Shown: in pieces, positions 4,901 to 51,959 of the stretch
Numbering within the stretch: the stretch's first letter is position 1
How the letters are laid out: every line of letters begins with the position of its first letter
Origin: Nageia nagi
Lineage: Eukaryota > Plantae > Pinophyta
Reading direction: 5' to 3'
DNA length: 64,000 nt
Assembly (NCBI GenBank): GCA_050084985.1
Contig: JBITNC010000001.1
Location: 72,478,001 to 72,542,000 of the forward strand
Notes under the pieces: model-generated
What the model saw: only the letters and a program-made list of their open reading frames with translations
Database searches by the model: none
Told to the model about the DNA's origin: nothing
Made by a program: the position numbers and the translations under genes

Positions 4901-5254
4901 ATCATGAAATTCTTCAGAATGGGTCAATGTATAATCGTCCCCATACCTCTTCTAGCCAAAGGCTGCTTCAATTTAGGTAGGGGAAAAGTCCATGATCATG
5001 TTGCCTTTTGTATCCTATAGAACCCTTTTGCCATAATCACATTTCCTGGCCACTTCACTGCACAAGTTTGGGAAAGGTACTGCAATGGGCATCATGACGG
5101 CATTGAACAATTCGCATGTGTGGATTAGCTCCTCGGATAAGTCCAGGTTTCCCCAATCTGTATCACCAACGAAAATGTGTTGCCCCTTGAATCTGGCTTC
5201 AAGGAGCTCTATTTTTTCCTTTTGTTGGAAGTCTATCAGGCTTTCCTTCAAAAG
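1968..5254 (-). pseudogene. Long accessory ORF of a Tat/Ogre-like gypsy element, disrupted by stops; 5' part lies at 11304-11397 beyond the inserted element
   Basis: Chain of minus-strand ORF pieces (5015-5254, 4319-4555, 3911-4162, 3312-3581, 3099-3284, 2906-3157, 2519-2743, 2081-2341): globular aromatic N-half (…DFTYI…YGSEEQPLLLPRFASDRLIL…), S/E/D-rich acidic tract, basic tract, coiled-coil C-terminus. The reading frame joins across the AAAAG TSD (…QMTR|LLKES…). Confidence 0.6.
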
Positions 5255-5992
5255 TGTAATGTTCCTTTTATTTTTATTGCTCAAGTGAATGCTCAAAACA
5301 CAGAAATAAACTTGCAGCCAAGAACAATGTCAAAACTCAGAAAAATATGCAAAATAATGGAGAGAATCAGCCAAGGAATTTTATTAAAAAAAAAAATGAT
5401 GTCAAACCAATACAATATCTGAAGTGCCACAAATGTAGATCCAAGCTCACAAAAATGCCACAAATTGGCCAGATCTGAAAATGATGCAACAGAATGAGGC
5501 TAGGCTCCCATGCAAGGCCTCCAACCCTCAAGATCTCTCCAAGAAATCGCTACCTCCAACTCTAGATGTGCAAGCATCCCCAAGATTGAGGCCCACAACT
5601 CCTGAAGTCTCCCAAGCAATAGCTACCTTTAGCTCTAGGTGTACAAACACCCCCAAGACTAAGGCCCACAACCCTTGAGATCCAAATATGCATGAACACG
5701 TGCACACTTGGGTTGAGAAAGGAATCTCCTTCACTCAAAAATAATAAAATAGATGATCCACAAGCTTCCTCAAATGGGATGCCCACTTCCCTTTTATAAG
5801 TTCATATTCTAATTTGGAGTTGACATCTCCCAACCCTAAAATCACTTAAAGTGCCCTATTACAAAATAAAAATATAAAACATAAATAAACACAACTTAAG
5901 TTATGTCTCTTAATCACATGAACTCCTTTTTCACTTTTATAATTAAGTGTAGGAGACATTTACAAAAAAATATTTATTTTTGGTACATTACA
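5255..5992 (-). repeat. 3' LTR (738 bp)
   Basis: TG…CA termini; direct repeat of 10563-11298; abuts PPT agtccaccctcctc (reverse complement GAGGAGGGTGGACT). Confidence 0.97.
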
Positions 5993-6004
5993 AGTCCACC
6001 CTCC

Positions 6005-7431
6005 TCAAATTTGCTTGTCCTCAAGCAATTGCAATGTTGGATGGTTCACAATTTCATTAATACTGTACCCAAACTGTCTCAAACACTTATGTGTGTCAAA
6101 ACCCCATATTGTTTCTTTGTTACCAAGCCCATTTTGAATTCATAACAAGGCTGATTTTCTGATAACAGCATTAAAATCATGGTGTTTGTACTCCCAAAAC
6201 GTAGCCAAACTGAGTGATTCTCCATCCCTCATAGTTGTACTATGCATGAGCATCAACCAACCAACAATAATACTGATTGGGGTTTTGAGAAAGAGGCTGC
6301 AATGTAAGAGTAACAGGTCTAATTTTCTCTTTCCAATAGCCATAAATGACTCACAATCATCTACACTCATGCTTTCATTGTTTCTCATCAATGTGCCATG
6401 CATAAATGAAGTGTAGCTATAAATCATACCAAGAAAATAGAGACTGAAAATTGTATGTACAGCAGTATTATCATAGCCATATATCCATTTTACTTCCTCC
6501 CATATGACTTCTAAACCAAGCCGAACATTAAGAACTTCATTAGGAATGTTTTTCTTTACAACACTCAATAGACATGCCGTTTCCAATGGCCCCTCATGCT
6601 GTTGTAGTAACCTTGAATTGAATGTGCATACCATGGATGAATATCTTCATAATTTCATGTTCACTCTCAAGACAAATATGACTATGTGCTCCCACAACCG
6701 AGAATACACCTTCAAAACCAGCCAATGCAAAAAGTGTATAACTCAAATTCATGGCAAAATGAAAGTAAGTTACCTTCCCAAATGTGTGGAGGTTGGCATC
6801 ACCACAAGACACCAATTTCTGAAACTTACCAAGTTTCCTATCAACAAGTTCATCCAAATCATGCCTAAAAAGAAATAGTGCGCTGCTGTCATAAAAATCA
6901 GAATTCAACTTGTACCTGTTTAGAATGTTTCTGTGGATTCTCAAGTTCAAATTTATCTTCTTTTTCCTTCTATAACTGATTGAGGCACCTTTACATATGA
7001 AATTTTCTGATCTTACTTTTCCTAAGTTGATAAAATGAACACATGCAATTTTTCAACTCATGCGTAGCAGTCTCAAATCTTATTGCATCAAATATCATGC
7101 AATGTACAGCCATATTCATGTGAATTGCAGCCAAGCCATTTGTCATCAGAATAGTCCAAAACATCTTGCAAAGTGGAGTACAAAACATGAAGGAAGATGT
7201 ACTAATGTTTTGACAACAAGTATATATAAAACTTGCCTTTGTGCATGCCCAAAGAAACACAAATCAAATCAGTTTCCTGTGTAACTTTTGCAATCTCAAA
7301 ACTGTATGCCATCTTATGCATGTCAATAATCAAATACCAACTTGAAATCCTCCAATGTAGTGTGCTCCAAATCAAACCTGAATTGAAGATGTACAAGGGC
7401 TCCAAAGTGTGCTCAAGAGTTTTCACAAGTG
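6005..7431 (-). pseudogene. Distal part of the chimeric polyprotein (unassigned mosaic) ending in a chromovirus pol C-terminal tail
   Basis: Overlapping frameshifted ORF pieces (7202-7447, 6991-7260, 6594-6950, 6140-6634). The 6634 frame continues past TGA 6140-6142 to …EIVNHPTLQLLEDKQI* (stop 6005-6007), matching the pol tail at 13855-13905 (EILAH…LLEDKQF). Confidence 0.6.
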
Positions 7432-8772
7432 CTATGAACAAATGCAATCAAGGCTGCCTAAGTGCTTCTTCAAGACCCATGAAGTGCTCAAAGTGTCTTC
7501 CAACTCCAACAATCTAAAAATGAAATGATTAGTTTCCCATCTATAACTGTTACACATTCTCAAAATTAAATCAAAAATCATCAAGACAAAATTATGAACC
7601 AATGTATGCCAAGGTTCAACAAGAAGTGCAACCCATTCATCCCATTTGTCTTTCAAACCATGTTCCAAGTATGTGCAAGTGTCCCAATAAAGTGTGGAAT
7701 CAGTCCCCTTTTTGCTATTCCAAAACTTCATCAACAAGGCAACTATAATCCCTTGAATTCTTTCAATTATGATACTTTTTTGCTGGCTATCCCAACTGTC
7801 TAAATAGCTGAGAATGTCATGTCGAATTGTGAGGTGACAAGTGTACCAATTGTCCACATTTCCTATTGTAATTTTTCTGATTTCTTTATCAGATTCATAG
7901 GTTGCCATCAAGTGAGAATTTTGTGCAATTCTTTCCACATATAAGGCTCCAAAAAACAACTCCAAATACGAAAACAGAATCAACAATGTGTATACCAATG
8001 AAAGCCATAAAAAGAGATGGAAAGATACCACATATGACCATGAAAAAGTATCTCTCTCTTTAATGTTCCATGTCGGGTGTGTTCTACACATTCTATCATG
8101 CATCCACATGAGAAAAATCAGCATTTTATTTGAAGGAACCATGGCTGTAGTAAATTTACCTTCACATGAAATATCAAAGAGTTGTCCTCCTCCCATGTAC
8201 TTGTATGAAACTTCCAAAATTTTGCATGCAACTTTGGATGTGTTTTCCTTGATTCCTTGTAGCACTATACTCTTGCCATCTAGTACAAATTTTAATTCCA
8301 ATTTTTGATAATTGGTAGAATAATCACTAAGAGACCAAAGCCATTGGACTCCCAAAACCATATGAGGCACACCACCCAATGGAAAAACAAAGAATTGCTC
8401 ATCACTCTCATAGTTTCCAAAGCTGATTTTTATATCCTTTACTACTTTATTGCGAGGAATGAGATCACCAAAGGACTCAATTTGGAAATCTCTTTTAACT
8501 CCATTCAAACTGTCACTAACTGAAAATTCTCCAATGCAATTATTATGTTCTTCATTGATTTCATTCCCAACAAGTGTACAAAATGAAGTATTTTGGGACT
8601 TTTTGAAACATACCTCATGTGAAAGAGTGACATCTCTATTACCAATCTCTTGAATGTAATCAGCCATGCAAGATGAACCATGCTCCAATGTTGAAATGTC
8701 TTCATTATGTTCTCCTTCAAAATTTTCTATTTGGCCTTCTTCTTTTTCAGTGGTGGAAACAACTTCAGAATT
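7432..8772 (-). pseudogene. In-frame continuation of the PDS5 ORF: acidic linker, C-terminal half of a gypsy aspartic protease, unassigned region with a hydrophobic stretch
   Basis: Same frame as 9585 (9585-8688=897). KDIKISFGNYESDEQFFVFPLGGVPHMVLGVQWLWSL…NYQKLELKF is the RVP_2-type 'VLGxxWL' half of the protease; the catalytic D(S/T)G motif is absent. Confidence 0.75.
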
Positions 8773-9585
8773 TTATGCACAAATTACCTCAAGCTCTTCT
8801 TTTTGATGGACAATTTCAATTTTTTCCATATTTTCCAAAGCTGATTCATCAACATAGTCCTTATCATTAAGGGAAAAATCTGTAGAATCATCCTTAGACC
8901 CTTCATTTCCAAAGAAGCATTTCAACTTCTTTTCACACTGTTTTACAACACTATCAACCAAATAATGGGCAGCTGCAGTAGTAATCAAATTTCTCCTCCA
9001 AACATCCAATAACATGGACAAGAGTGGTTGGTAAATATAATCACCTTCATTTATAATCAAGACCATAATATCTCTCATGGCTGAAATGACATTATTAGCA
9101 TGCTTTTGTCTTGCTGATGCAATGAAGTGATGAAACATTTGGTAGATTAATTCATCCATTCCCAAATCTAACAAAAGATTTCCCATTCTAGTTTTTGCAA
9201 ATATTTCAAGTAGAGAAACCCTTCTAGCAAAATGAGAAATTGAAACATTTCCTAAACCCTCAAAACTATCAACCAACAGCTGAAATATTGCTCTCAATGT
9301 GTTGTCATCATAAGGAGTTCTAGGTGCATAAATTTGCAATATTTTACACAAAAATGAAGCAACCATAATTCTTACCTCCTTATCCTTGTGGTTCAACCAT
9401 TTCGCCTTGCCTAATGATTTTACCACTGGAATTAAATCTGCATGTGGCTCATCCATCATATGCAGACAATCCCTTACTTCTTCTAAGATGCAAATAAAAG
9501 CATCTTTTGGTTGAAAGAGAATTCTCAGTTTTTCACTGGCATAATTGAGCCTTTTAATCACCTCTTTTTTGCCAACTAGTGCCAT
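8773..9585 (-). CDS. PDS5-like: Retrotransposon-captured PDS5 (sister chromatid cohesion protein) N-terminal HEAT/ARM domain, intronless, 270 aa
   Basis: WLNHKDKEVRIMVAS…IYAPRTPYDDNTLRAIFQLLVDSFEGL…FARRVSLLEIFAKTR…LLDLGMDELIYQMF…VISAMRDIMVLIINE…AAHYLVDSVVKQCEKKL is collinear with the plant PDS5 N-terminus as recalled (LNHQDKDVKLLVAS…TAPEAPYSD…IFQLIVSAFAGL…FGRRVLILETVAKYR…MLDLECDDL…SSMQNIM…AARRLAMKVIEHC). Confidence 0.9.
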   Translation of the reverse strand: MALVGKKEVIKRLNYASEKLRILFQPKDAFICILEEVRDCLHMMDEPHADLIPVVKSLGKAKWLNHKDKEVRIMVASFLCKILQIYAPRTPYDDNTLRAIFQLLVDSFEGLGNVSISHFARRVSLLEIFAKTRMGNLLLDLGMDELIYQMFHHFIASARQKHANNVISAMRDIMVLIINEGDYIYQPLLSMLLDVWRRNLITTAAAHYLVDSVVKQCEKKLKCFFGNEGSKDDSTDFSLNDKDYVDESALENMEKIEIVHQKEELEVICA

Positions 9586-10548
9586 GATCCACCATTAACC
9601 AATTCAACCCCCAAAAACCTTTGCTTCAACCAGATCCCAAACCACAAAACCTAGATAGTCCAAAACTGAAAAACTCTACAATAATTTTGCAAACCCTATT
9701 TCTGCAATTTAATTTCTGAAAATTGGTAAAAAATCATAGGAAATGCTAGATCTCATACCAAACATTTTTGTAGAATTTTTTTGAGGGTAGCAATGCAAAG
9801 TAAGGCTTAATGGGTATTCAAATCCACCCCACAAATGCTTTCACATGCTAGAATATTTAAAAACGTCACTTTTCTTTTTTTCCTCAAAAGGACCCTTCTA
9901 GAAGCTTAAAATTGCATACAAAGTGCTCAAAAATACCCCTTAGGGTTAGATGTTTGGCTTAGTATGCTGGATCTGATGCTGGAACTCCAAAATTAGCCTC
10001 AAATGGCCCCTCAAAATAGGGTTTCCTGATACCCACGAAATTAGGGTTTCTTTTTGCAACCAAACAAATTACCAAGAATCTGCAATACCCAAAATGATTT
10101 TCACTATGAAATTGGCAACCCTAATTTTGAAAAACTTTGAAACTGAGATACCCACAACTGAAAAACACTGAAAAAATGCTAGATCTGAAAATATCCACAA
10201 AAAATTTTTTTTACTCAAAACTCCAATTCTGCCTAGAATCCTTGAGCAAAATTTTTCTGACTAGCTAGAATAATAGATCAAGACTTTCTATTTTTGAAAA
10301 TAGCTTTCAATCCTGCAATTCTTATCTCTCAACCCTAGACGACTTAGTCTAGGAATGCAAATTTTCTTTAAAAAATGCCTTTTAACCTTGAAAATTGCTT
10401 TTAAAATGCAAACCTCCTTGATCTATTAGATCCCCCAAAAATATTCAACACCCAAATGCTAGAAATTGAAGATCTGAATTTTTTGCAGAAACATTAACTC
10501 CAAATCTTTGAAAAATGTTCGATCTAACCACAGGTTGGCAAGATCCAA

Positions 10549-10560
10549 GCTCTGATACTA
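10549..10560 (-). other. Primer binding site (initiator tRNA-Met)
   Basis: gctctgatacta is the reverse complement of TAGTATCAGAGC (one mismatch to TGGTATCAGAGC), 2 bp from the LTR. Confidence 0.9.
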
Positions 10561-10562
10561 CT

Positions 10563-11298
10563 TGTAATGTTCCTTTTATTTTATTGCTCAAGTGAATGCT
10601 CAAAACATAGAAATAAACTTGTAGCCAAGGAACAATGTCAAAACTCAGAAAAATATGCAAAATAATGGAGAGAATCAGCCAAGGAATTTTATTAAAAAAA
10701 AATGATGTCAAACCAATACAATAGCTGAAGTGCCACAAATGCAGATCCAAGCTCACAAAAATGCCACAAATTGGCCAGATTTGAAAATGATGCAACAGAA
10801 TGAGGCTAGGCTCCCATGCAAGGTCTCCAACCGTCAAGATCTCTCCAAGAAATCGCTACCTCCAACTCTAGATGTGCAAGCATCCCCAAGATTGAGGCCC
10901 ACAACTCCTGAAGTCTCCCAAGCAATAGCTACCTTTAGCTCTAGGTGTACAAACACCCCCAAGACTAAGGCCCACAACCCTTGAGATCCAAATATGCATG
11001 AACACGTGCACACTTAGGTTGAGAAAGAACTCTCCTTCACTCAAAAATAATAAAATAGATGATCCACAAGCTTCCTCAAATGGGATGCCCACTTCCCTTT
11101 TATAAGCTCATATTCTAATTTGGAGTTGACATCTCCCAACCCTAAAATCACTTAAAGTGCCCTATTACAAAATAAAAATATAAAACATAAATAAACACAA
11201 CTTAAGTTATGTCTCCTAGTCACATGAACTCCTTTTTCACTTTTATAATTAAGTGTAGGAGACATTTACAAAAAAATATTTATTTTTGGTACATTACA
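10563..11298 (-). repeat. 5' LTR (736 bp) with minus-strand TATA (cccttttataag, 11095-11106)
   Basis: Direct repeat of 5255-5992; followed by the AAAAG TSD. Confidence 0.97.
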
Positions 11299-11303
11299 AA
11301 AAG

Positions 11304-13186
11304 CCTAGTCATCTGGCTTTTGGTTACATGCCTTTTCGAACAACTGGCTCTGAATTTTGCTAGATTTCAATGAAGGAGCTTTGATGTTTGAAGCCATGGA
11401 GAATTCTACTTAAGCTCTTGTCAAACCCAAACGTCTAACCAATCTAGGCGCATAGTTCTGGATGAGTACAAAAGCATAGCTTGAAAAGTATGCGATTGGG
11501 CCTAGGGTCACTTAGTCAATTTTCGAACACAATTCTTCATTCCAGATCTGTTCGCATGGTTTTGAATGAGTGCCTCAAGTAATACCTTGAAGGTATGCGA
11601 TTGGGTTTAGGGGTTGATATGAAATGCCTTATCCAAAAAAGGCTAACTGAATGTGCAACATCCCTAAATCCTCCTTTCCTCCTTGGTCGTATGTTTTAGA
11701 GTGAGTGCCCAGGCATGTAAGAGAAATGGTGCAATTGGGTTCAGAAATGAATATGCAATGTTTCTCAGTGGTCTTCTTTCCTTGGTTGCATGTTTTGAAA
11801 TGAGTGCCCAAGCAAGCAAGAGAAATGATGTGACTAAGAAGAGGGGTGATTCTGGAATGATGTTTAAAATACTCAAAAAGGGGGTGATATTTATAGGTTT
11901 TGTGTAGTTTCCAGGTGTCACTTCCTTATTGGCCCATCTAAGGGTCAAATAGAAGGCCCACAATAAGGTCACATGTTTCTTGGAGTGTGCAAAAGGACGG
12001 GGTGAAAATGATGCGACTGGGAGAGGGGGGTGACTTGGCCAAATTTCAGACTGATTTTGAAGCCTTAGCCCTTAGTTGCATCCTTTTAGATGGGTGCCTA
12101 AAGCACATGCTTAAATCTTTGCGCCTGAGTCCTGGCACACTTCCCAAGGCCTAGGACCTAAAAAACTTCAAAAAAAGTGCAAGTAGTCTTTGGTCGCATG
12201 CCTAGGAAGGGATCCTTTTTCTCCTATTCTCCCATGCTTTGCTCCTTGTCAAATTTGCAAACTGAAATGAAGGGGGCTGATTTCCCTTTATAGCCCTCCA
12301 AGTGGGACACATGTCACCATGAGATAGGTGTAGAAAGAGGTCCAATGCATGGGCTCCCAATTGTCAACAAGGCTCAATACTTAGTCAATTTTCCTCTCTT
12401 CCCTCAGTCAATTTTCCTCTCTTCCCTCTAGTCGCATGGTTTTGGACGAGTGCAAAAGGACTCATCTAGATCCTTGTGACAACGTTTGAGGCTCCAAAAT
12501 TTGACTGGACGAGTGCAAAAGGACTCATCTAGATCCTTGCGACAACGTTTGAGGCTCTAAAATTTGACTAAGTGTAGAATCTCCTTTGTTGCATGGTTTT
12601 TGGTAAGTGCTAAAAGGACTCATCTCAAAGCATGTGACAATGAAAAAAAAATGCTAAGTATGAGTTGCCACCTTGGTTGCACCCTTTTGAAGGGGTGCAA
12701 AAAGGACTCCATGAAATGCATGCAACAACAAAATTCACTTAAAAAATGTGAAGTGTGAGATGATGTCCAGCCTAGTCGCACCTTCCTAGAAGGTGCAAAA
12801 GCACTCCATCGAAAACATGTGACAAGCTGAAAATGGGTGTTTCCTTTGCTTTTTCGACAGAAAAAACAACATATGAGATGCAAATGGGGTTCCTACAACA
12901 TGGGGGCCCTCAGGATGCTTTTGAATATGATGATGCAAATGACAAAAACAAGGAAGGCTGACTGGTCGCATGGCTTAAGAGGGGTGCAAAAGCACTCATT
13001 GAAAAACATGCGACATAATGAAAAATGCAAGATTTTGACTTCAACTACCATGAAAATCTAGTTTAAACACGTTCCTAAGACTAGACCGAAAGATGTGCAT
13101 CTTCTTGGACAAATTTTCCTAGAATTCCTCTTTTGCTTTCTTGAGGGTCCTCAAAATGTGAAAAATTTGGGGGGGGGGTTTCTATA
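11304..13186 (-). mobile_element. Start of the accessory ORF (ATG ~11397) and upstream promoter/LTR-like region of the host Tat/Ogre-like element
   Basis: Minus-strand TATA (ccctttatagccc, ~12284-12296); dispersed gtcgcatg/tgcgac motifs; tandem duplications (~24 bp x2 at ~12381-12426, ~63 bp x2 at ~12443-12569); ends in a G11 run plus tttctata (possible decayed LTR end or PPT). Confidence 0.5.
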
Positions 13187-13188
13187 GG

Positions 13189-13752
13189 CACAACACTTGG
13201 TATGAAGATATAATGAGATACCTAACATCCGGTACCTACCCACCTCATTTCAACATGTCGCAAAGGAGAGCATTGAGGTATAAAGTTTCTAGGTTTATGA
13301 TACAAGCAGGTCAACTGTATAGAAGAAATTATGATAGATTATATTTGAGATGCCTGGAAGAATCCCAAATCAAGGAGGTCCTGCAGCGGTTCCACAACCA
13401 AGAAAACAGAATAGGCCATGCTTCAGGTGGCGCATTAGCTCATCAAATTTTGAGGATTTTCAAGGATGTCCATGATTATGTGAAGAAATCTCATGTATGC
13501 CAGATCTCAACTGGAAGATAGAAGATTTTAAATATACCATTGTAGCCCGTTCTCGAGTCCAAACTATTCGCCCAGTGGGACTTGACTTTATTGGGGTTAT
13601 CAACCCCAACTCCTCTTTAGGGCACAAATTTATATTAATAACAACGAATTACTGCACCCGTTGGACCGAAGCTGAAGCTTGTAAGAATGCTACCTCTAAA
13701 GTAGTAATAAAATTTCTCGAAGAAATCATCACCCGCTTCGATATGCCATACT
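13189..13752 (+). pseudogene. Tat/Ogre/Athila-type integrase fragment (H2C2 zinc finger and rve N-half)
   Basis: WYEDIMRYL…LYRRNYD…YLRCL…FH…GH…HVCQ and GLDFIGVINPNSSLGHKFILITTNYCTRWTEA…VIKFLEEIITRFDMP; frameshifted and internally deleted. Confidence 0.85.
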
Positions 13753-13754
13753 CG

Positions 13755-15471
13755 TGTTGGAAACTAGAATAAAGAAATTAAGATCAAGATAGATTCATAA
13801 ATACTTGATCAAGTGGAAAGATTTGCCAAATGAAGATTCCACATGAGAAGGAGCTGAAATACTTGCACATCTATCATTGAATTGCTTGAGGACAAACAAT
13901 TTCGAGAGGGGAGGCTTTGTAACATCCCCTTTGAATAAAAACAAATAAAATTGGAATCCAAGAGATTCCTTTTTGTAAATATTTTATTTATTTATTTTAT
14001 TTGTCATTAGTTAATTGGGATAGAAATATAACGGTCCATTGGACCCACATTGTGAGCCCCAAGAGGGACGTTTTCCTCCCAAGCATAGGGTGTGTTAATT
14101 TAATAATCATTAATGCACTTGGAGATCCTAACATGATTGTGGGAATCCCAAACATCATGTAACATCCAAACTAGCATATTAAACACGTAGAACCCAATGT
14201 TGGACTTAGGCACTTGCAACAGCCTTAGGGAAGCTTCTAGACCCCCATGTTGGCCCATGTTGACACCTCAACATCCACACAACTCATAGACCTACGTTAG
14301 GCATGTGTGACACCCTGGACCCCACATTGGCATTTATGGCTCTTAGGTACCCACGTTGGGCATGTCTGAGCCCTAGGCACCCATGTTGGAGATCTTGGGC
14401 CTCCAGAAGGCTAACGTTGGATTTTAGGAGTTGGGGATGACTCCTAGGTGAGATCCAGATTCAATAATGTGTTGTATAAGGAAGTGGAGCCTCATTGCAA
14501 GGATATATAGAATTTGGTATTGAAACCCCTTCTTCTATTCAAAGACTTGGTGGCATCAAGCACCCTTGGGCATGTAGACCAAGGAGAGTCTAGGAGGCTT
14601 GGAACACCTTCTGACTAGCGGTTGAGGTGAGTGTTCGTGTTGTGAGGTTGCCTTACCCTAAGGCATCCACAATGGTTTGCACCTTCGAATCCATTCAGTG
14701 GTATTTCGGAATTATATTCGATTTCTTCATTGGGAGCTAGCCTGCGAGGGAGCCCTTCAGTGTGGCATCCACAGATTTGGTAAAGTGTGGTTGTTCTAAA
14801 GTGGTGTTCACAATATTATTCATCCTTGCACATCAATGTGCCCTAGTTGGCTCCTTGGAGGCCAATGTTGAGCCCTCTTGGGCCTGGTATTGTATTGATC
14901 TCATCATTATTCATTAATCCATCCGTGGCACATTTGGATCTCACTTATTGTCTCATATTGTGATGTGTTGATGCTATTTTACTCCTTTTGGTGTGACATC
15001 ATAATTCTTGGACTATTCTTGATGTGTTGTGCTTGATAAATGTGTTCCTGAATGTGATGTTGGCTTGTAGAGGTGATATCTTGCTTGAGAGGTGCATCAT
15101 TGAGTTTTTTGGCTCATTTTTTGACTTATTTGATGTCCTAGATCAGTTTGTGGCATGCCTGGATGCTTAGTTTGATATTTATTTGATATTTGCTTGGCTA
15201 ATTTCTACATTGAGAAAATTTGGGATTTTACATATGAATATCATGAAATTGAATGTGTATTCTGTTTTTTATGAGACTTTGGAGGTCAAACGTGTCTCTA
15301 CCCTTTTAAGTTTCTTGGTTTGGTTCCTCTATGTCCTTAATCTGAGGGACTGTGACCTACAATCAAAGACAAGGTGGCTGGAAATATTGTAATTATTATT
15401 GATTTAAATTTATATTGGACAAATGATTGCAGTTTAGATGGGAATGGTTTTAGCCAGTAGAGGCTGTTACT
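13755..15471 (+). mobile_element. 3' end of a chromovirus: chromodomain, PPT (13904-13916), 3' LTR from 13918 (right end approximate)
   Basis: KYLIKWKDLPNEDST*E chromodomain, LLEDKQF tail, gagaggggagg PPT, then TGTAACATCCCC. The LTR shares motifs with solo LTR 28780-29959 (gattgtgggaatccca, cctaggtgagatccagat). Confidence 0.75.
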
Positions 15472-16918: not shown

Positions 16919-16961
16919 TAAAGTTAAAAACATTTCTACAATTTAAGAATATCAAACCATC

Positions 16962-17005
<44 letters not shown>

Positions 17006-17058
17006 CCATAGTGATGATGGTTTGATATTCTTAAATTGTAGAAATGTTTTTAACTTTA
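16919..17058. repeat. Perfect 51-bp inverted repeat around a (TA)n loop
   Basis: Arms 16919-16969 and 17008-17058 are exact reverse complements. Confidence 0.95.
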
Positions 17059-19176: not shown

Positions 19177-22100
19177 CATAGAATAAAAGGACGGTTTTTT
19201 GAAAATACGGTTTAGGGCCAAAGACGCAAAGACGGCCAATAAACAGTCAAGTTAATGGGCTCATCCTCATCCTTCTTTTGTAGTTGCCTCACATACAATC
19301 ATAGGTTGACATAAATGTACACAATATCATTCAAGCGTTGTGTTGTCAACCTATTAACATAAAAAAAACGTGAGATAATAAGAAATTGAGAATTGAGAGT
19401 GAGAAGTAAGAAATTTCCATTGCATTTTGAAAGTTGAAAGGAATCACAATTGAAATGAATCAAATTACTAACCTGTTGCGCTTTTTGGAGTGAATTTTTT
19501 CAAATGCACTCCAATTCCACTCACATCTTGAAGCGCTACACATTTGACTAAGGATGCGGATGGCAAATCTTTGCAACTCAGGTGTTTCACCCCCAAAATT
19601 CGCCCACCACAACTCTAAAAAATGAAGTAGCAATATCAAATTAGAAAACATTAAATATTTAAATGCCTAAATGTATAAACTTAAAAGTAATGCATGAACT
19701 GTGAATTTTTCTCACTTGGAGCAATAGTGAAACGTGCCTCTCTAGAGAATTGATACCCAAAGAGGCCTCTTAAGTGCTTGTATGACTCAAGCTCCTTGAA
19801 GGTTTTGGATTGAGTGGTGGGATCCTGAACCATAGTAGCTACACATTTTGTAAGCCCCAAGTTAGCATGAGTATCAGTCTTGTATTTTGAGTTTGGTGCA
19901 AAATATAAGATAGGGTTCAAGATGGCCCCTGCTCCATGAATAGGGCGATACAACATCTTCCACCACCGTTCATCAATGAAATCCCAAAACACCATGTGCT
20001 TGTTACCAAACTCATTATCCTCATTAGGGTGGTCAATATAATAATGCATTATGGCCTCCTTGGCCCCAGCCATAGCCTCATAGAAATAGCCCATAGTGGG
20101 CCTATCACTATCAACCAAACGAAGGACTCGTTCAAGTGGTGCTATGACGCTACAAATCTCTTTGAGCGTCGCCCAAAATTCATCCTTGGATATCAATGAA
20201 GACACGACCATGCCCTTTGGCCTCGTGCTCATGGCCGTATCACTCCACTATCTAGAAACAAACATTGAACGCAGCTCATGCATGTTTCTAAATATCAATT
20301 GAAGGTTGATGAAATTGGAGGCAAAACATGTAACTCCTAGGTGCAACATGTCCCTGCCATTGGTGTACCTCCTCATCTTGCTAAGAACAATGGTTTCATT
20401 ATAAATATACCTGATAACACCAGATAAGAAATTAAGAATCATGATAGTCTAAGAGTAGTACTATAACATGAGAATAAAAAATGATAAGATAAAACAAGAT
20501 AAAATAGATGTACCTTGTGATTGACCTTGCTTGGTCAACCACCTCTCTCACCCAAGCCATTTTTCCTATGTCCTCCAGAAGAAGATCAATGCAATGACAA
20601 GCACAAGGAGTTCAATACAAGGAGGCATACATATTCATGAGCTTGTTATCTGCTGCAACATAACTAGAAGCATTGTCTTTGATCACCTGAACAACATGCT
20701 CCGGCCCCACCTCCTTCACAAACTGATCCAATAAGTCACATAACAAGTTTGCATCTTTTTCCTTATTGGATGCATCAACGGATTTCTTGAATATTGTGCC
20801 ATATTTTGAGTATACCAAAAAATTAATCAAGCCTCTACTCTTACTATCCGACCACCCATTAGATAATATTGTGCAACGCATAAACTTCCAAGATTCTTCA
20901 ATATCAGCCATTCTAAAAGCAGTAAAATAAAACTAAAATAAATTATAAAACAACTATATTAAAAAAGTAATTAAAAAAATGTAATACATAATAACATATT
21001 GTCTATTGAAATTTGATATCATTATTTACATACCTTTCATGACTTCCTGCTTGAAATCCTTCATGACAGACCCTTGCATTTTTGCATGAGTAGGGGCCAC
21101 ATACCCAAGTCTAGCATTAGCCACTGCATCGATTGATGGTTGCGAAAATACACTCTTGGTAATGTGGATTGGAGCTCCCCTGTAATAGATCAATTTTTCC
21201 AACATCAAATCAGGTTCTTTCTTCTCCTTCTTCTTCAAAAAACTGATAATGGATGGTTGGGATCTAGGAGTTGTCTGGGGTTGAAAGTAGGAATGGATTC
21301 CAACCCCTCCAGGGCATTTACTTCCACTAGATCTACTTCCACTTGCACTGCTAGTGCCACCTACACTTGGACTGAAAATATTTCCACTTGCAGTAGAAGA
21401 GCTCATCCCTCCTAGCTCCATTCGAAATGCTCATTTCCTCTCTTTTCTCTCAACAATAGAATCCAAGGCTCTAATTGCATCCAAAGCAAGATCTGGAGTT
21501 GCTTTTGGGAAACTCTCCACATCGCTCCTTGGTCTCCTAGAAAGATGCCCTTTGAACCTTGTAATTGTTCCCCGGATAGGCTTGTCACATAGATTGCACT
21601 GAAATGCTGAGAATTGCCTCGAACCCCCTCAATTGGAGTCACATATTGCCAAAATCTATCCAACTCTTTCGGCATTTTGGAGTCTTGGACAACCTCCCTC
21701 AACAATGCTCTTGCTCCCCTCTAGCTCCTCTCTCTTTCTACAAGCCCCGCAAAGCAAAAATGAGGGGAAAAATACTTCCCCCCCTTTATTCCTTCTCCCT
21801 AGCTGCTCAATTGCCTTCCGCATTTTCGTGATGTCTTTTGTGTATTTTCCTTGTTTAAATAGCTTCTAGATGACAAAAATACGAAAACGCCATCTTTTGC
21901 TTCCTAATGGGTGTTCTGGACCTGTCATGGTGCATCTTTTGATCAAAATACATTTCTTTTAGGCGTTTTAAATGACGTATTTGGAGAAAAAGAAGCCAAA
22001 AACGGTGGGTACATCGTTGAGGTGTTTAAGTTCATTTTTTTTACATTTTCTTGGCATCATTTGCATTTAAATGCTATTTTTTGGGTGAAAAGATGTGTAT

Positions 22101-27014: not shown

Positions 27015-27743
27015 TGTAATGTTCCTTTTATTTTTATTGCTCAAGTGAATGCTCAAAACACAAAAATAAACTTGCAACCAAGGAACAATGTCAAAACTTA
27101 GAAAAATATGCAAAATAATGGAGAGAATCAGCCAAGGAATTTATTAAAAAAAATGATGTCAAACCAATACAATAGCTGAAGTGCCACAAATGCAGATCCA
27201 AGCTCACAAAAATGCCACAAATTGGCCAGATCTGAAAATGATGCAACAGAATGAGGCTAGGCTCCCATGCAAGGCCTCCAACCCTCAGATCTCTCCAAGA
27301 AATCGCTACCTCCAACTCTAGATGTGCAAGCATCCCCAAGATTGAGGCCCACAACTCCTGAAGTCTCCAAGCAATAGCTACCTTTAGCTCTAGGTGTACA
27401 AACACCTCCAAGACTAAGGCCCACAACCCTTGAGATCCAAATATGCATGAACAGTGCACACTTGGGTTGAGAAGGAATCTCCTTCACTCAAAATAATAAA
27501 ATAGATGATCCACAAGCTCCCTCAAATGGGATGCCCACTTCCCTTTCATAAGCTCTATTCTAATTTGGAGTTGACATCTCCCAACCCTAAAATCACTTAA
27601 AGTGCCCTATTACAAAATAAAAATATAAAACATAAATAAACACAACTTAAGTTATGTCTCCTAGTCACATGAACTCCTTTTTCACTTTTATAATTAAGTG
27701 TAGGAGACATTTACAAAAAAATATTTATTTTTGGTACATTACA
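27015..27743 (-). mobile_element. Solo LTR of the PDS5-carrying family
   Basis: Near-identical to 5255-5992 and 10563-11298; TSD GAGAT (27010-27014 and 27744-27748). Confidence 0.97.
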
Positions 27744-41560: not shown

Positions 41561-44559
41561 TAAGAAGGTTAAGGGGTTTATTATCGATCATGTAAAGGGT
41601 GCTTATGTGATGGTAATTTTAGGGTTTATGGCTTTTATTTTGAGGAGTTTTCTCAAGACTAAGAGGATTTTTGATCGTTTTATGATTGATTAAATTAAAC
41701 TTAAGAAAATGAACTTTGTGGTGAAGTTAATTTACTCATGGCATTGAAGAGTACTCTATGTTTCATGCAACACCCTTTCAACATATTCATTTTGTGCAAT
41801 ACATCTCTCTTCAAAACTTCAAATTGAAACCTACTTTTCAATCTAATGTTAAAAGGCTAAGGGAAATTTATATGGCTATGGAATCAATAGGTTCTATGGG
41901 TGAAAAGGTTGTAGAAGGCATTGAAGGACCTTGATTTGGGAAATCATAAGGATTTAGTTTTTCTTGAATATAATGAGTATATAAGAGCATTTAAGTAATT
42001 GTATTTTACTATTATTGGAAAATATTTTTCGTTAGCTTACTTCTTTTAATAGATATCAACAACCAAGTCTAAATTCCCTGATATGGTGTTAACATTCTTA
42101 TTTGCAAGTTACAACTCTCAACTTTCATGCTACTATTTTCCTCCAAAATAAGATTTGTAGTAATGAGGTGGATCAAAAGTTCCATGCTAAATTTTCCCAC
42201 ATTATTCTTAATAAATTCCAACACTATATAAGTAATTATATTTATATTCTCATTTGGATCTCTACTAGAGTTTTTTTCTTTACAACGAACATGTTATGGA
42301 TAGTTTATATTGTACTTAGATCGTTGTTAAAGTGCAAAAGGGTCTTTTGCATGAGCTTTATCTGTTCTAGTTCTATGATTTATTTTAGATATCTTAAGTG
42401 ATATGTAAAGAAAATGGGTGGAAACTAGAAACATATTTGACCTCAACTTGTGTTGTTTTGTAAGCTTAGAATATCCTTAACATTTGAAATATTCTATTTG
42501 TTAAAATCTTAGACATAATTTTTTATATAAATAAAATGGATAGCTTACATTATTTTCTTGGTGACTAATCATGAAGTTAGAGACATAGTTTAGGAACTAT
42601 CTATTGGTATAGAATTTCAAGTTCTAACTACCAACAATTTCTTTATTATTATCAACCATTATGGAATTTTGTGAGAACTCTTGTCCACTATGACCAAACA
42701 TACAATTTTTTTTTGTATAAATTATTTTGAAAATACATAAAAGATCATATATAAAATTTTCAAGAAAACATAAGATAATTATAAACTTTCATGACAAATT
42801 TGGATCCTAGTGAATGCTAATGTTAATATGGGTTGAAGTATTCTGATCTTGACTATCATTTCATTTTGTGCATATTTTTGTTCTTTTTCTTTAAATTTAG
42901 GGAGTACGAAATATTTTTCTTTAGTTTTATAAGATGATAAAAGTTTATTCAACAAGAATAAATTTTTAGGCTTCATTGTTATTGTCCCTTTGCAGCCAAA
43001 GCAAAGTTGAAATGTGATGAGCTATTCTAGGGTCACTCCTCAAACATGCCCTAGGAGAGGGATGTTTGGCTTTTAGCTTTGAAATTACTCCAAACAAGCT
43101 CAATCATGCATAAAATATCAAATGACTTGCTATGAAAGGAAAATATGAATTTTAACTTGCAAAAATACCTCCAAAAACCAATGTTTAGCTATGATGAGCA
43201 AATATAAAAATAACACAAGCAAATGCCTCTAGAATTCCAATGACTCAATCAGGGAGCAAAACCAAAAAGCAAACAATGCAAACACCACTCCAGATCCAAC
43301 ATCCAAGCACAAGAAGATAAATTTCAAGATATTGATAGCAAAATGTAATTGTATTGATTACATAATGATGGAAGTGCAAATACAAATATTTATGTCTACC
43401 TAAGGAGCTTTCACCAAGACTTCCTCTAATAGGCTTATATCAGATGGAACCAAGGCATCACCAATCCTAAAAGTGGTGAGGTGCAAACTATGTATTCTTT
43501 GCAAAAACTATAATGGAACCAACAATGTTCCTCTCAAGATGGCTTGAATAAGTTAAGGTTAGCCTTCTCTCATCTCAATACCTCAAATGTAGGTTTCCCT
43601 ACAAGTGGCAAAGATAGAGCTTCAAGTCAATTCAAAAATGGGTTTAATAATAATAATCATCATATCTCATAATGACTACAAGTCCTTCTTTTATTGGCAA
43701 GGGTGATCATGTTCTAATCTCACATTGAGATGATCCAATAATGAAGTGATGTGATTTGTGTGCTCATGTATGCAACATACAAGATGAGGATCCTTGGGAT
43801 GGATGAAATCACATCTAAGGGTTAGGAATGCCAACATATAAGAGGGGGTGATGTTGAAGTGCCTTGTGATTACTACCATAGGTCCAAGTACCAAGAAGGG
43901 CCAACATGGGATCTTAGGATGCTCACATGCCTAATGTCAATGCTAGGAAGCTGTCCACTTATCTTGAGATTACCAATGTCTAGTTTGAACACACCTAACC
44001 TTAGAGCTCCAAATGACCTCATAGTTAGTGCAATAACCTAAGTGGATGCTCTACCTTGAAGAGGGGAGCACTAATGACTAGAGATGCTTTAAATGCCAAT
44101 ATTACAATCATCAAGGCTAAAATATACAACACCTTATGTAAGGAGACTGATATTGTATTTATAAATATAATTACCTTGGTATTACAAATACATTATTATT
44201 GGAATTTAGTAAATAACTAAATACAAAACTTAAATAAATAAAAGGGTTATTTATTCCATAATTAGAGCTTTGCTAAGTATCTAAGTGGAATTTACATCAT
44301 TTTAGCCAATTTCTATCAAATTATACCAAATCGTACCTAAATTAATATTCCCATTTATCAAAGGTGAAATGGGGATAACATTTTAAAAAATGGACATTAC
44401 AAGTCTGCCCTCCTCAAATTACTTATCCCCAAGCAATTAGAAAAATCCACTCCTGCAGTAGAGTCTTCTTAGTTGATCCAAGAATTCACAAACTCTAGCT
44501 TCTTTTTTGGTGTAGCGCTCATGTGTTATCCATGCCCAAGCTGAATAAATTTGATGATG

Positions 44560-45128: not shown

Positions 45129-48100
45129 CTTAATGAATTATCAAACACTTAATGCTTCCCTAACATCTTTTGATAGGTTGAATAAACCTAAAATAACTTA
45201 CATAAGGATGAGGGAGAACTTCTTGACTATTTGTTACCTCCTTCTCCTTTCCATGTTTATATCCTTTTTGATGAATCTTCCCTTTCTTTTCAATCTTCAC
45301 TATAGATGCTCTCTCAATATGAAAAATCATCATCTTGGCCCTCACAATGGTGATGTGATGACCACAACTCCTTACAATAACAACAAACCTTGTAGTGTCC
45401 TAGGAGTTTTTGAAGAAAAGCTTACCTATTGTTCATACCTAATATACCATGGTAATGCTCATGTGCTAATGATTTGAGGAAAATCCTGCATCTAGATTTT
45501 GGCCTCAAATGTTTTTGAACTATGACCACAAAAAGTGGACATCTTCCATCTAGTGGAAGAATGGTGATGAGAGATCCTTAAAACTCAAAATTGAGCCTTT
45601 CAAAAGACCAAAAACTTATTCTCAGGTGATGTTCTCTTTCCAAGCTTCCCAATGAACTTGTATAAAGTAATCAATAGGTCCTCAAGCTTCCTTAGTGTCC
45701 AACATCCAACTTCCTTATTTAGAATTTGAAAATCTACTCTTAAATTTGGTGTATCCTTTTGGTAACTCAACATTTGGCTTTATAGGGCTAGAGGATGATT
45801 TAAAATTGCATTTTTACACCAACATTATACTTTAGCTTCAAAATTCAAATTTTTGAGCACAATAAAATATAAAATTCAAAAATAGCACCTTATCACTCTT
45901 ATTGTATTTTGTTTGTCAAAATAAATAAATTAAATTTCGTATAACTCCTAAAAATAATAATTTATTTTTTCCTAATGATAAAATAAAAATATTTTGTATT
46001 TTCCAAATCTTTTTCTTCCCTTATTATTCATAAAAATAAAATGAAATATTTTTGTCTTTTTCTCCTTATTTATCCTCAAAAATAATTAAAACATGAAATA
46101 CTTAAACTACTCAAACCTATAATTTCTATCCTGCCATGGTGGAATGAGATAATAAATCTTGAACTTATGGGTTATAGGCCTAAAAAATAAAAACTGAATT
46201 GGGTTATGTCCTCTTGGAGCTCAATGTTCACACACACAAGCTAGAATAGTGCAAAGTCAATTCTAAATTTTGAAATTTGGCCAAGATACTAATCATCCCA
46301 ACTTAAATGGATGATTTTTTGTAGGTCATAACAAATAGAGCCTCTTATACTCCTTACATTTAACTTTTGGCTCTAGAAAATAGAAAAAATATCCCAACAT
46401 CTTGTTCCCAAGTTTCCATGATGCAAATACCATAATAAAATTTAGTTAATAATAGTAATCAACTCTTTCTCCTCAACATCCTCCTTGTAGTGACTTGCAA
46501 GTTCAAATTTGTTAGAAAATAATGGTTAGTATGTCTAATCTCCTTGCAAAATTTTCAATTCTTGCCTTCCATGATAAAAATTAGTAAATTCTTGCAAGAA
46601 ATATCACTTATGATGTGATCCCAACACATAATTGGCCTCAAGAAGCCAATGTCTCACTTTAGGTGCTCCTAAAATGCAACAAAAGTTTAAAAAAATCCTC
46701 TAATAGCTCAATGTCTATTCTCTAATGAACATAAAATGAAGAAAAGTATTCAAAAATCCTTCAAACCTTTAATGTTTGGCTCAAAATGAGCTTATAATAC
46801 CAAACTAATTTCAAAACAATCCTTAATATGCCATATTTGCCTAAGAATGATCCCAAAATGCAGTTTGCACCTCAAACTCTTCCTCGATATGCTAACCTTC
46901 ACTTTAGGATAGATCCAAAATGTAGATCAAGCTTCAAATTAAATACCCTTAAACTACTAATATATGGCTTAAGGGGACCTTAAAATGAGAGTTGATCCTC
47001 TGAAATAGCTTTAGCATGCCAACGTTTGGCCTAGAATAGTCTTGAAAAGTAGAATAAACCTTGGAACTCCTCTAAAATACCAATTTCCACCTATAAATGG
47101 TACCAAAATGCAATCAAGGTCTCAAAATTCTCCTAATTAGATAATGTTCTCCTCAAGTAGGCCTCAAAATGATGAACAAGATACCAAAATACCCTAAAAA
47201 ATGCAACATATGGCTTTAGGTGGGCCTAGAATGCAAATCAAATCATATAAATGCCCTCATAAATGCAATGTACTCCTTATAAAGACATCAAAATTCTAAA
47301 TTAGCTTCAAAATGGCTCCCAAAAAAAATATTCAGCTTTAGGTTGGCCTAAAATACCAACATCTAGCTCTAGATGAGCTCATAATTAGCAAACAAACCCT
47401 TATTCCTCCTCCAAACTCAGATTTATCGAGAATGGAATTCAAAGTTGAAATCAAAGATGTAAATTTTTTGAAAGTGTACCTTTTCAAGCTGGAAAAACCT
47501 CCTTAATTCCTCAAAATTTGAAATTAGGACCATAAAATTCCCAATGACTTGCTAGAACGGTGAGATTCAACTTCTAGATCTCTAACGTTTCACTCCAAAC
47601 ATCTAGATCCACCAAGAACTCCTTTGAAATGACCAATATGATGCTAGGTCAATTTTACAATTATGTAAGCTTCTTCTCTTCAACATGATAATAATATTTA
47701 TCAGCAACTACCAATGTGAGCATGTAATGACCAACCTCAAGATACTATTTGACCTCAAGTATCATCAAGGATTTGAATGAATTATGTTTGAATAATGCTA
47801 TGGTAATGACAAGTTTGATAAGAAAATATGTGTCATTTGTGATAATTTGATGCTATATTAGAGATGTTTTGACATAGGTCACCTCGAGATGGAGAAGCGA
47901 TCCAAAGACCCTAAGGACCAAAGGTGAATTGGTCACGAGAATGGAAGGGAAATGATTGGTGTTGAATCACTGACACACCCTATGACCATCGTAAATCATA
48001 TATTTGCATGTAGAATAATGGCTATGACTATCAATTTCTTGATGAAATTGTGTTTTCCAATGTGTGTGGATTAATCTTGCCTCATAGGACGAGGCAAGCA

Positions 48101-51100
48101 TCAGAGTTAAAGGTGTGTTTCCATTGTTTTGTATTTTTTATTTTCAAATTTGAAATGGAAGAAAAAAGGAATATATCTTATTTAAATATAAAAATTTGTA
48201 TAAGGTTAGAAAAGTAAATTTAGTTAAAAATAATTTAATTAAAATGAGTGCTTATACTATTGCCATATGGGGTTAATAGTAAAAATACTATTAAAAAAAG
48301 ACTAAGGTCACTTTCTGGTGTTATAAGATATTTAATGGGTAGGAAACTAATGGAGTAATTACACTATTTAGTTTTATTTTCTTGTGTTAGGTATAGATAA
48401 TAATTGGGCATTATTTGTCAGTTAATGAAAATGTTACCAAGGTATTTAATACTATTTCAATCATCAACAACTTTAAGCAAACCTACCCCAAAAATTATTA
48501 AAGGTGTGAGGAGATGTCCATTTGGAAACACTTGGACCTCCTTGGTTATAAATAAAGGGGTGGAATCTTAAGGAAAATGCCTACCCATATATGTTTTATT
48601 ATTTCATTCTTATTATTTCAAGCTTGATGTAGATTTGCATAAAGAAAAGAAGTCTCTCTTCCCTTTTCAAGTCAAGGTGCATTCCTTTACATTATTTTTG
48701 CCTAATTAAAGTATTTCTAGTTTGAGGTATTTAATGAGTTGTATGAAAATAAATAAGTGTGATTTTCTTTTTTTATTCTTCCATATATTGGATGTAGGAG
48801 TGGAAAATTTTATATACAAATTGTATTATGTATTTTATGATATTTTAAGGAGACTAGTCAAATATTTCTCCTCATGCCTTTAGCTAGAGTTTAATAAATT
48901 TATTTTGACATAATTTTATTAAAGTCCTAATATGATGTTTATCATAATATTTGAAAACATTTCATAGAACTCATTGTTGTACCATTTGAAGAGACATAGT
49001 GGTTATTTTATTTATTCTTTAAAAAGTGGAGTAGTGGGATTTTCTTTTGTTATTCTCCCTTTACTTAGATGTAGGAGTGGAAAATTTCACGTACAAATTG
49101 TATTATGTATTTTATGATATTTTAAGGAGACTAGTCAAATATTTCTTTTTATACCTTTAACTAGAGTTTAATGAATTTATTTTAAAATAAATTGTATTAA
49201 AACTTAATATTATGTTTATCATTTTTGTAAAGAAATATTGTTAAATTCATGTAAAAGTGGAGAAAATGAATTACTAAAAAATATCTTTGCTTGTTATTAT
49301 CTAAGTTTGTCAATTAAACTAATTAGTATCTAATGGGTGATAAGTTATATTTAATATTTTTAATAAGTAATTCAAGAACTCTTTAGAATCTTGTATTAAA
49401 TAAATTATGGTTTTGAGATTATGATATTGGTTTAATGTTTAGTAAAATAATTCATATGGTACTAATTGTGTAAATTAATTATTAAGGTATCCAATACCTT
49501 ATTATAATTATTTAAGATTGATTAAGGTAAATAAATAATAGATTAATGTACATTGACGAAAGAAAGAAAGTAATTTCACTTAAGGTATATAGTTAAATTC
49601 ATTTGCATAATGGTCAAATTTTAAAAGGGTTTTCATGATCCTCCTCCCTCCTAGTACTCGATCCACCTACCAAGCTCCAAGGGGATGTTTGATGCTCATT
49701 GCATGAAGATCGATGGAGATGTTCAATAGTTGATACAATAGTCAAAACCATATGACATGAACAAATTTTAATTACAAACTATTGGATATGAAATAGTATG
49801 ATTTTACAAAAAGATTCCATATTGATTAAATAGGTTGTATTATATTTGAATTGCCTTTGTATAATGCATGATTTCTACTTGTAATAAATTATGGAAGCTT
49901 CAAAGTTTATGAAAGTAAATGTCATTCATACATTTTATACATGGATTATATTACGTATTAATTAATAAATCTTGTAGATTACTTTTTATTTATATGATTT
50001 TTAGAACAATATTATCATTGTGATTTAATGAGCTTTTTTTTTTAATTATGGTTATCAAATACTACAATTAGCATCTATTATATGTATCATTAGGGGTAGG
50101 AAATTACTATTTCTTTCATAAAAATGATTAATAGGTATTACAATTGATGAAGTAAATGATTTTAACAAAACTCCTAAAGAAGTAGATTGATTAGAAAATA
50201 ATCCTAAATTAGATTTAGGGTTCTAAAAAATAATTTAGGAGCATTTGGATATTTTAAGGACTCTTGGGATTAAATTGGGTATAAATGGGACCCAATGGAA
50301 ATAAATAGGTTTATTTAGGATCCTTTTGGATGGATGCAAGAAAATGATGGAGAACCTTCACCAAAACCTACCTTTCTAAATGACAAACAAAAGAAATATT
50401 CTTTGTATGAGGATCACTTAGCATCTACATTACTTTTGTAGCAATAGTGGCTAGACATTGCCTCACAATCTTACTGCTTTATGTATGCATAAGAACTTTT
50501 AAAAAGTAGATTCATATACATAATACAATGTGTATGGAATAAATAGAATTATGTGACTTCCTGAGCAAGCCTATAATTGAGACTTCCAAGGTATACCTCA
50601 TGAGCAAAGAATGGTGTTAAATCATAGAACTTGTATTGAGCATTTTGTCATGTACCCTCTTCATTATTTGGGAATATTAGTTTATGGTTAGTGGGTTATG
50701 GGTGGTTCTTTTTATGAATACATTTAATAATAAATTAGACTAAAAAACCATTCAAGGATATTATTTAATATCCATGGCTCCCCAAGTTATGGGTACGGAG
50801 ATGCTAAACCACATGGTGGGCCTAGTTGATAGTTATGGGTAGGCTAATGACTCATATCCTCTGATAGGTGAGTAAGATGGGGATAGCAAATAAAAAAAGT
50901 ACTATTATCAAGTGAGGGTAACTAGTAGTCATACCACTTGCAGTTAGCAGATAGAGATATATCGATTATTTCATAGGTGATTCTACCCTATCATATAGAA
51001 GTTTTTTTAGGAAAAACTATTTGCTCCTATGAGATGAAAAGTTATCATCAGGTGATGATGCTAACTTAGTGGAAGTGCGATCTCTCGGGTGGTATGGGTC

Positions 51101-51959
51101 TTGAGTAGAAAACCAATACGCTATGACCAAAAAGCCTATTACACATGGTACATGGAATAGGAATGGTGAGGTTACCTTTGAGGCATCTTTTTAATAGGGT
51201 GAGTGTTGAAGAGTGAACACCAAATTTTTTATCAGGATTGGTTACCCTAGGTTCTTAACCAATCTTACCATGTTAGTGTTGAACTAGCTAGCAACATTAT
51301 TAAACTCATGTGGGATCAACTAGTTCATTCCTAGAATATCGAATGTTAAAAAAATAGGTTTGAAATTTAGGTATTTGGTTGAAAGAAATAAGTGGGTGCA
51401 TTACATTGGTATCAGAGCATCATGTTCAAACCCTCAGGCCTATGGTCCATGACTCTTTTGCTTTAAAAGTTTAGGAAGTCTAGATTGAGTATGCATGAGC
51501 CTAATAACAATACCATTTGGTTGGATTATATTATGGCACTCCCAAGATGTGTAACTAGATATTCAAGCAAACTATGATAAGGTGTCAAAAATAGCCTTCC
51601 TATAAATGCCAATTTTAGTGCAAACCAAAGAAATTGTAGGGGCCTAAATGTAAATGTTAAGGTCTAAAATGCAAATGTTAAGGGGTGAAATGCTAGAAGA
51701 GGAATAATAAGGAATACCAATTGATAAGTTCTTACAAATAATACTAGAAGTTCTTCTAACCATTCTAATAAGAATAATGGAGGAGAAGAAGCCATCACGA
51801 TACTCCAAGAGTAGGTGATAGAGAAGCAAGAACTGATAAATAATATGCTGAGTCATAGAGTTGATCCTCCAAGATAAGAATCTGATCCAATCCTTCTAGC
51901 TCAAGTAAGATGGAGTGGATTGAACAACTAGATTTAGGTAAGGATTTAATAAGAACTTA

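Follow-up and report, generated by a model that had tools for sequence, protein, structure and literature searches.

The analyzed stretch of 64,000 nt (hereafter, the window) contains a Ty3/gypsy LTR element in which no RT or integrase was detected, and which nonetheless carries a long, nearly continuous reading frame headed by part of the cohesin regulator PDS5. This raises the question of whether the frame is maintained by selection and, if so, whether the selected property is the encoded protein or translation itself. The initial annotation had proposed that gag-pol was hollowed out and refilled while its start, stop and frame were kept, under selection for continuous translation acting either through the protein product or through RNA stability and avoidance of NMD.

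The element occupies positions 5255-11298 of the minus strand (6,044 bp; Table 1), and its TG...CA LTRs, CTTTT flanks, PBS, PPT and chromovirus-like tail mark it as a true insertion of a non-autonomous element of 6 kb, probably derived from a chromovirus. The two LTRs were 1.8% diverged (13 substitutions in 735 sites; K2P 0.018). The PBS is presumably of the tRNA-Met type, with one mismatch relative to TGGTATCAGAGC, the sequence that we take to be characteristic of that type. The leader holds seven upstream ATGs, each opening 1-18 codons. Searches with Pfam, PDB and tblastn detected no capsid, RT, RNase H or integrase in the element, and no match to the components of an autonomous LTR retrotransposon was obtained outside the protease half and the tail. 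Regarding chromovirus membership, an RVP_2-type protease half and a post-chromodomain tail were present, while the chromodomain and RT were absent, so that no RT tree is possible. Parts of the element were found in 20 of the 24 sequencing runs listed. The PDS5 matches indicate a plant host, perhaps a conifer, and occurrence in air metagenomes hints at wind pollination.

Table 1. Features of the PDS5-bearing element and of a related solo LTR in the window.
Feature	Position	Strand	Evidence
Target-site duplication CTTTT, 5' copy	11299..11303	-	sequence
5' LTR, TG...CA	10563..11298	-	compared with 3' LTR
Primer-binding site	10549..10562	-	sequence
Non-coding leader	9586..10548	-	74% match to the sister-element leader (467-847) and to that of L001
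Gag-type start, 8 codons	9562..9585	-	codons and start context common to gag-headed sisters (L001; window 437)
PDS5 N-terminal HEAT-repeat piece, putatively captured, intron-less	8874..9561	-	Pfam, PDB, L001 alignment, fold
Acidic linker	8480..8873	-	also in PDS5-less sister elements
TAA, private to the window copy	8773..8775	-	family contigs, relatives
Ty3/gypsy aspartic protease, C-terminal half, without catalytic motif	8194..8475	-	protein matches, RVP_2
Unrecognizable coding-frame filler	6056..8193	-	alignments, tblastn, domain scans
TGA, private to the window copy	6140..6142	-	family contigs, relatives
Chromovirus-type pol tail EIVNHPTLQLLEDKQI and terminal stop	6005..6055	-	match to 13868-13922, P0056
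Polypurine tract	5993..6006	-	sequence
3' LTR, TG...CA	5255..5992	-	compared with 5' LTR
Target-site duplication CTTTT, 3' copy	5250..5254	-	sequence
Solo LTR, same family, own target-site duplication ATCTC	27015..27743	-	97% identical

In the window copy, the ATG at 9585 opens 270 codons that are closed by the TAA, and the same frame continues past this stop for 446 codons (8772-7435, beginning NSEVVSTTEKEEGQIENFEGEHNEDIST) up to a TAG at 7432-7434, giving 717 codons with a single internal stop. The earlier reading of two ORFs in one frame, split by a lone TAA and made up of a PDS5 N-terminus, an acidic linker and the C-terminal half of a protease, was thus borne out by Pfam, PDB and RVP_2 matches; for the second ORF the frame was correct, although its limits from stop to stop are 7432-8772 and not 7432-8688. 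Farther downstream, the frame changes four times (at about 7436, 7257, 7043 and 6645), meets the TGA, and ends in EIVNHPTLQLLEDKQI with a stop at 6005-6007 that overlaps the PPT. The anticipated ending, a chromovirus pol tail reached after a few frameshifts, was likewise recovered: positions 5988-6043 were 80% identical over 56 nt to 13868-13922 (E 1e-6), and P0056, a protein with a Pfam Chromo domain, has the identical ending LLEDKQI. P0056 is a natural 246-residue protein that combines in one frame a protease C-terminal half, the start of RT and a chromodomain tail, and represents another internally deleted element with its frame kept. The match lies within 13162-13922 on the plus strand of the window, where another element is represented by integrase remnants, a chromovirus-type tail, a PPT and the beginning of an LTR.

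About 120 of the 130 matches of the second ORF fell on residues ~100-190, which correspond to the C-terminal half of a Ty3/gypsy protease, and 9 of the 13 longer matches scanned carry the RVP_2 retroviral protease; the D-S/T-G motif is absent from the window frame. The filler had no match in Pfam, PDB, Atlas or Rfam and was not present in the viral contigs searched. An integrase-like appearance of about 7800-7650, noticed by eye, was unsupported by tblastn with the fetched pol proteins. The filler may be decayed pol; of the proposed hollowing out and refilling of gag-pol, the conservation of start, stop and frame was upheld, while the refilling was not.

Whether the breaks in the frame are private to the window copy or conserved was evaluated in eight sequencing runs, all compared as contigs. 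In family contigs from four of four runs (at most three samples, organisms A-C), both stop sites were occupied by sense codons, and each of the four frameshift sites showed indels or loose ends. A contig of 2,423 nt spanning 7557-9978, with 25 differences, covers the TAA site, and in three further organisms the TAA was replaced across the larger part, or roughly half, of the depth. The run recorded as RNA covered 14 of 30 bins with 4 contigs, and a run labeled "RNA?" showed DNA-like cover. Among natural relatives, the protein P0003 (83% identical) reads across the break at 7434 and P0008 across those at 7257 and 7043, the elements L001 and L002 (77-81% DNA identity) are without the three downstream frameshifts, and in all three alignments covering a window stop the relative had no stop at that site. 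Since contigs and natural relatives read through the breaks, both internal stops and all four frameshifts are private to the window copy, and the frame of the family is open from the gag start at 9585 to the pol stop at 6005, over about 1,200 codons, a continuity pieced together from overlapping contigs with no single contig over the whole frame. Programmed readthrough and a deliberate short PDS5 product, both considered in the initial annotation, were rejected, the former because the stops are not conserved across copies and the latter because the TAA is private.

In order to evaluate how this frame evolved, the window copy, L001 and L002 were aligned pairwise with the breaks skipped, in frames first chosen from the window's own open stretches; an apparent gap of 1 nt at 8167, on the margin of the L002 alignment, was taken as an edge artifact, because in translation L002 has the four extra residues that are present in L001 as well. 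Pairwise dN/dS values, uncorrected for transition bias, ranged over 0.66-0.91 across five blocks of the filler; those for the linker were 0.82 and 1.69. Over the 464 codons common to the three copies, 223 differences were shared by L001 and L002 and 82 were found in a single copy (six three-way differences were left out). None of the 223 shared differences created a stop, against 11.0 ± 3.0 expected under neutrality (0 of 5,000 simulations), and the same held for two context-aware nulls (9.7 and 8.2 stops expected, the latter with trinucleotide context; 0 of 4,000 each). The test comprises three copies in two lineages, with L001 and L002 (93% identical) counted as one; when one lineage only, or half the changes, was counted, 4.3 stops were expected (P 0.01). 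These shared differences were distributed 80/77/66 over the codon positions and included 53 synonymous changes (55.3 ± 5.6 under neutrality), and replacements were no more conservative than chance (mean BLOSUM -0.43 vs. -0.34 neutral). The 82 single-copy differences, by comparison, included 7 stops, and the five other frames held 17-46 stops each, of which 13-20 were gained or lost. Indels followed the same pattern: the five common to two relatives were all multiples of three, none of ten in the leader was, and single-copy indels included seven frameshifts (four in the window copy, three in L001/L002).

It could be argued that the frame is simply left from a recent gag-pol ancestor, or reflects mutation bias or the choice of frames, given that the frames were picked from open stretches of the window and two lineages were compared. 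Yet the copies differ by about 20% of their DNA, with neutral amino-acid change and no stop-making change among those shared; the context-aware nulls, the off-frame and leader controls and the stops among single-copy changes point the same way, and the frame joins were confirmed by the independent natural proteins P0003 and P0008. An absence of selection thus seems extremely improbable. The lack of stops, the in-frame shared indels and the neutral amino acids indicate instead that selection downstream of the protease acts on openness and not on amino acids. During spread the frame was policed for stops and shifts only, each copy decaying after insertion. The proposal of selection for continuous translation is consequently retained as far as translation or RNA stability is concerned, and not, downstream of the protease, for a protein product.

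Sister elements lacking PDS5 provided a further comparison. L001 and L003 have a gag-like head followed by the same linker and the same dominant frame, and the main frame of L003 contained 11 stops in 839 codons, compared with 56 and 80 in other frames. As these elements keep the frame without PDS5, its openness is independent of the captured piece. L002 and L003 have in common a TAG that precedes the end of the frame by about 120 and 250 nt and that may have been inherited or reflect two independent hits; in the sisters, openness would then not need to reach the pol stop, which fits NMD but not a strict start-to-stop rule.

The same TAG bears on the idea of a requirement in cis for the entire chimeric polypeptide, or for its conserved C-terminal tail, e.g. 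to bring the RNA to helper particles, the middle being a spacer. A spacer would likewise give neutral amino acids and no stops, and the LLEDKQ tail is kept in the window copy, L002 and L003, within or beside the main frame. However, this tail is about 16 codons long, adjoins the PPT and may owe its preservation to a role as a DNA signal; moreover, the chromodomain itself is gone, heads vary among the sisters, and the stop common to L002 and L003 lies before the tail, all of which makes a requirement in cis very unlikely.

Several rearrangements were observed in the sister elements. In the stretches 2221-2770 of L002 and 2090-2500 of L003, part of the L002 filler is repeated in the same frame, and an in-frame block of 123 nt after the shared TAG distinguishes the two elements. 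In L001, positions 1-270 have an inverted duplicate at 1865-2500, probably an assembly or amplification artifact. Positions 1-1970 of the window (minus strand) hold the 5' part of a sister LTR element, truncated by the window start, with the same leader and a gag-like head at 437. Elsewhere in the window, pieces resembling a hAT-type transposase were noticed by eye at 19681-21430 (minus strand), a near-perfect palindrome of 140 nt (two arms of 70 nt, 96%, no spacer) was found at 16919-17058, and two pairs of old duplicated blocks with AT-rich subrepeats (47748-51354 and 56144-60090; 43484-44394 and 60844-61751) were 78-95% identical and lay 8.4-8.7 kb and 17.4 kb apart.

The first ORF was assigned to the PDS5 N-terminus by Pfam (PF20168, E 4.8e-43; residues 30-224 on model positions 3-202 of 1053) and by PDB (PDS5B, 5hdt, E 1.3e-12), with additional matches to human and yeast PDS5 structures and to plant PDS5 clusters in Atlas. 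The N-terminal HEAT repeats are therefore present, while the full HEAT array with the kleisin-binding region is absent, as the match stops at position 202. Structure prediction gave stacked HEAT repeats at modest confidence (pLDDT 62), with 5hdt again as the best match, and along 159 residues the piece was collinear with PDS5B. The L001 element and that at 1-1970 have leader and start context in common and begin MELFRRKE, the window element begins MALVGKKE, and the match of L001 to the latter resumes at about 8873; hence the PDS5 piece replaces about 55 codons of the gag head. It is intron-less and joined in frame on either side, from which we infer capture via an mRNA. The existence of several carrier families is suggested by diverged PDS5-bearing contigs (about 80-85% identity), one of which had a depth of 82. 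When longer relatives headed by PDS5 were sought at the protein level, none was present among 1,038 candidates and one, an orchid chimera, among 7,565, an absence that constitutes weak evidence because repeat contigs are short. Scans for loci matching the PDS5 part gave nothing in the metagenome, viral and prokaryote collections.

The PDS5 piece could also be functional cargo, for instance a WAPL/SWI1 decoy that alters cohesin or chromatin, and this would be compatible with a frame selected for translation. The PDS5-like fold and the several carrier families suggested by the diverged contigs would favor such a role, and WAPL1 and SWI1 bind residues 1-809 of Arabidopsis PDS5A, although the available text of that study maps the binding only to these 809 residues (PMC6465247); the N-terminal 300 residues are given to PDS5A in a review (PMC8044525) and mapped to SWI1 in PMC6465247. 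In a table of which 40 of 178 rows were listed, 10 of 23 between-species sites in the piece were synonymous (5.2 under neutrality, P 0.017) and the synonymous share differed from that of the filler (Fisher P 0.047), but the excess was lost (6 of 19, P 0.21) when four sites were dropped in a zone where other PDS5 repeats pile up. Replacements relative to P0001 and P0002 were more conservative than those in the filler (mean BLOSUM +0.21 vs. -0.29, P 0.004; neutral -0.38 ± 0.19), yet those between P0001 and P0002 were not (-0.20), and the signal against these two sequences, host or element in origin, may predate capture. At the loop that aligns with human APEAP the three sequences diverge (APRTP, SLKVP and IPKAP), the family frame joins the piece to about 950 drifting residues, and sisters without PDS5 have spread too. 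Amino-acid constraint on the piece itself is thus only suggestive, a decoy role is possible but unsupported, and we regard functional cargo as unlikely.

The reading that best accounts for these patterns remains translation itself: the window element is a decayed copy of a non-autonomous Ty3/gypsy family whose frame of about 1,200 codons is probably kept open because RNA translated to near its 3' end would escape NMD and be copied more by the helper. The full-length RNA would most likely double as mRNA and genome. With an early stop, several kb would become 3' UTR and the RNA would be exposed to NMD, so that only copies translated to near the PPT would give progeny, mobilized in trans by an autonomous chromovirus as the helper element. 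Avoidance of NMD is the likely cause of the open frame, but the filter could also be another translation-coupled step, such as export or packaging. A PDS5 piece captured via an mRNA would have survived because the frame was kept. In plants, long 3' UTRs full of stops predispose RNAs to NMD, which has been proposed for Copia RNA (PMC5580714, available text), and in MHV a long ORF, even one encoding a non-functional chimera, improves the replication of defective-interfering RNAs (PMC8255065, available text). On the other hand, many plant non-autonomous LTR families are described in the available text of bioRxiv 2026.03.01.708851 as having zero coding capacity, so that an open frame is not a general need.

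If correct, these results would tell apart, within a genomic parasite, selection on translation as such and selection on a protein, given the combination of no stops and neutral amino acids, and would connect RNA surveillance with the spread of particular retroelements in a way open to testing. They also advise caution, since in plant genomes rich in repeats a long ORF or an apparent "expansion" of the PDS5 gene family can be the cargo of an element, and they suggest a route to new genes in which an in-frame capture at once joins a long frame. A bolder conjecture, which we consider to have a small chance of being right, is that a widespread, DI-RNA-like class of non-autonomous plant LTR elements has to keep a kilocodon frame open only for translation, one branch of it being a PDS5 decoy for WAPL/SWI1; if true, the class would be a standing factory of long in-frame chimeric proteins, and the decoy a transposon-borne cohesin regulator. 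A search of the accessible literature found neither a PDS5-carrying LTR element nor an LTR family with its frame kept for translation alone.

Among known non-autonomous LTR elements, LARDs are defined by an internal region without coding capacity. The window element agrees with them in size (6,044 bp, above 4 kb) and non-autonomy, but differs in its family-wide open frame, which is under selection. It resembles the non-autonomous LTR families of plants (LARD, TR-GAG and domain-remnant families) in having LTRs, PBS, PPT and TSD, more than 4 kb, protease and pol-tail remnants, no enzymes and the need for a helper (bioRxiv 2026.03.01.708851, available text). According to the same source, such families show relaxed constraint and patchy remnants, whereas here a long frame has been purged of stops with no constraint on its amino acids, and TR-GAG elements keep a real Gag, whereas here the capsid is lost. 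Further, TR-GAG elements have a Gag ORF and measure under about 4 kb, in contrast to 6 kb here, with 8 start and a few capsid-start gag codons.

The PDS5 piece shares the N-terminal HEAT repeats (positions 3-202) with the PDS5 cohesin regulators (PF20168; 5hdt, 5frp), although it amounts to about a fifth of the model, the rest is absent, and it is repeat-borne. Maize Bs1 is an LTR element with a captured host gene piece. Both non-autonomous LTR elements and gene capture are thus known, the latter in gymnosperms as well: in the available text of a survey, host coding pieces in Ty3/gypsy elements, amplified with the element, are common in conifers, and PDS5 has no occurrence in its main text (PMC13477047). 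In contrast to these gene-capture elements, the piece is here fused in frame at the gag start, at the head of an open frame under selection. MHV is a cytoplasmic RNA virus studied by experiment, while the window element is a nuclear retroelement in which a fall in fitness with stops or frameshifts, whatever the sequence, is read from an evolutionary signal only; still, it resembles the defective-interfering RNAs of that virus in its dependence on a helper, its rearranged genome and its chimeric ORF, and in both translation would matter rather than the sequence translated (PMC8255065, available text).
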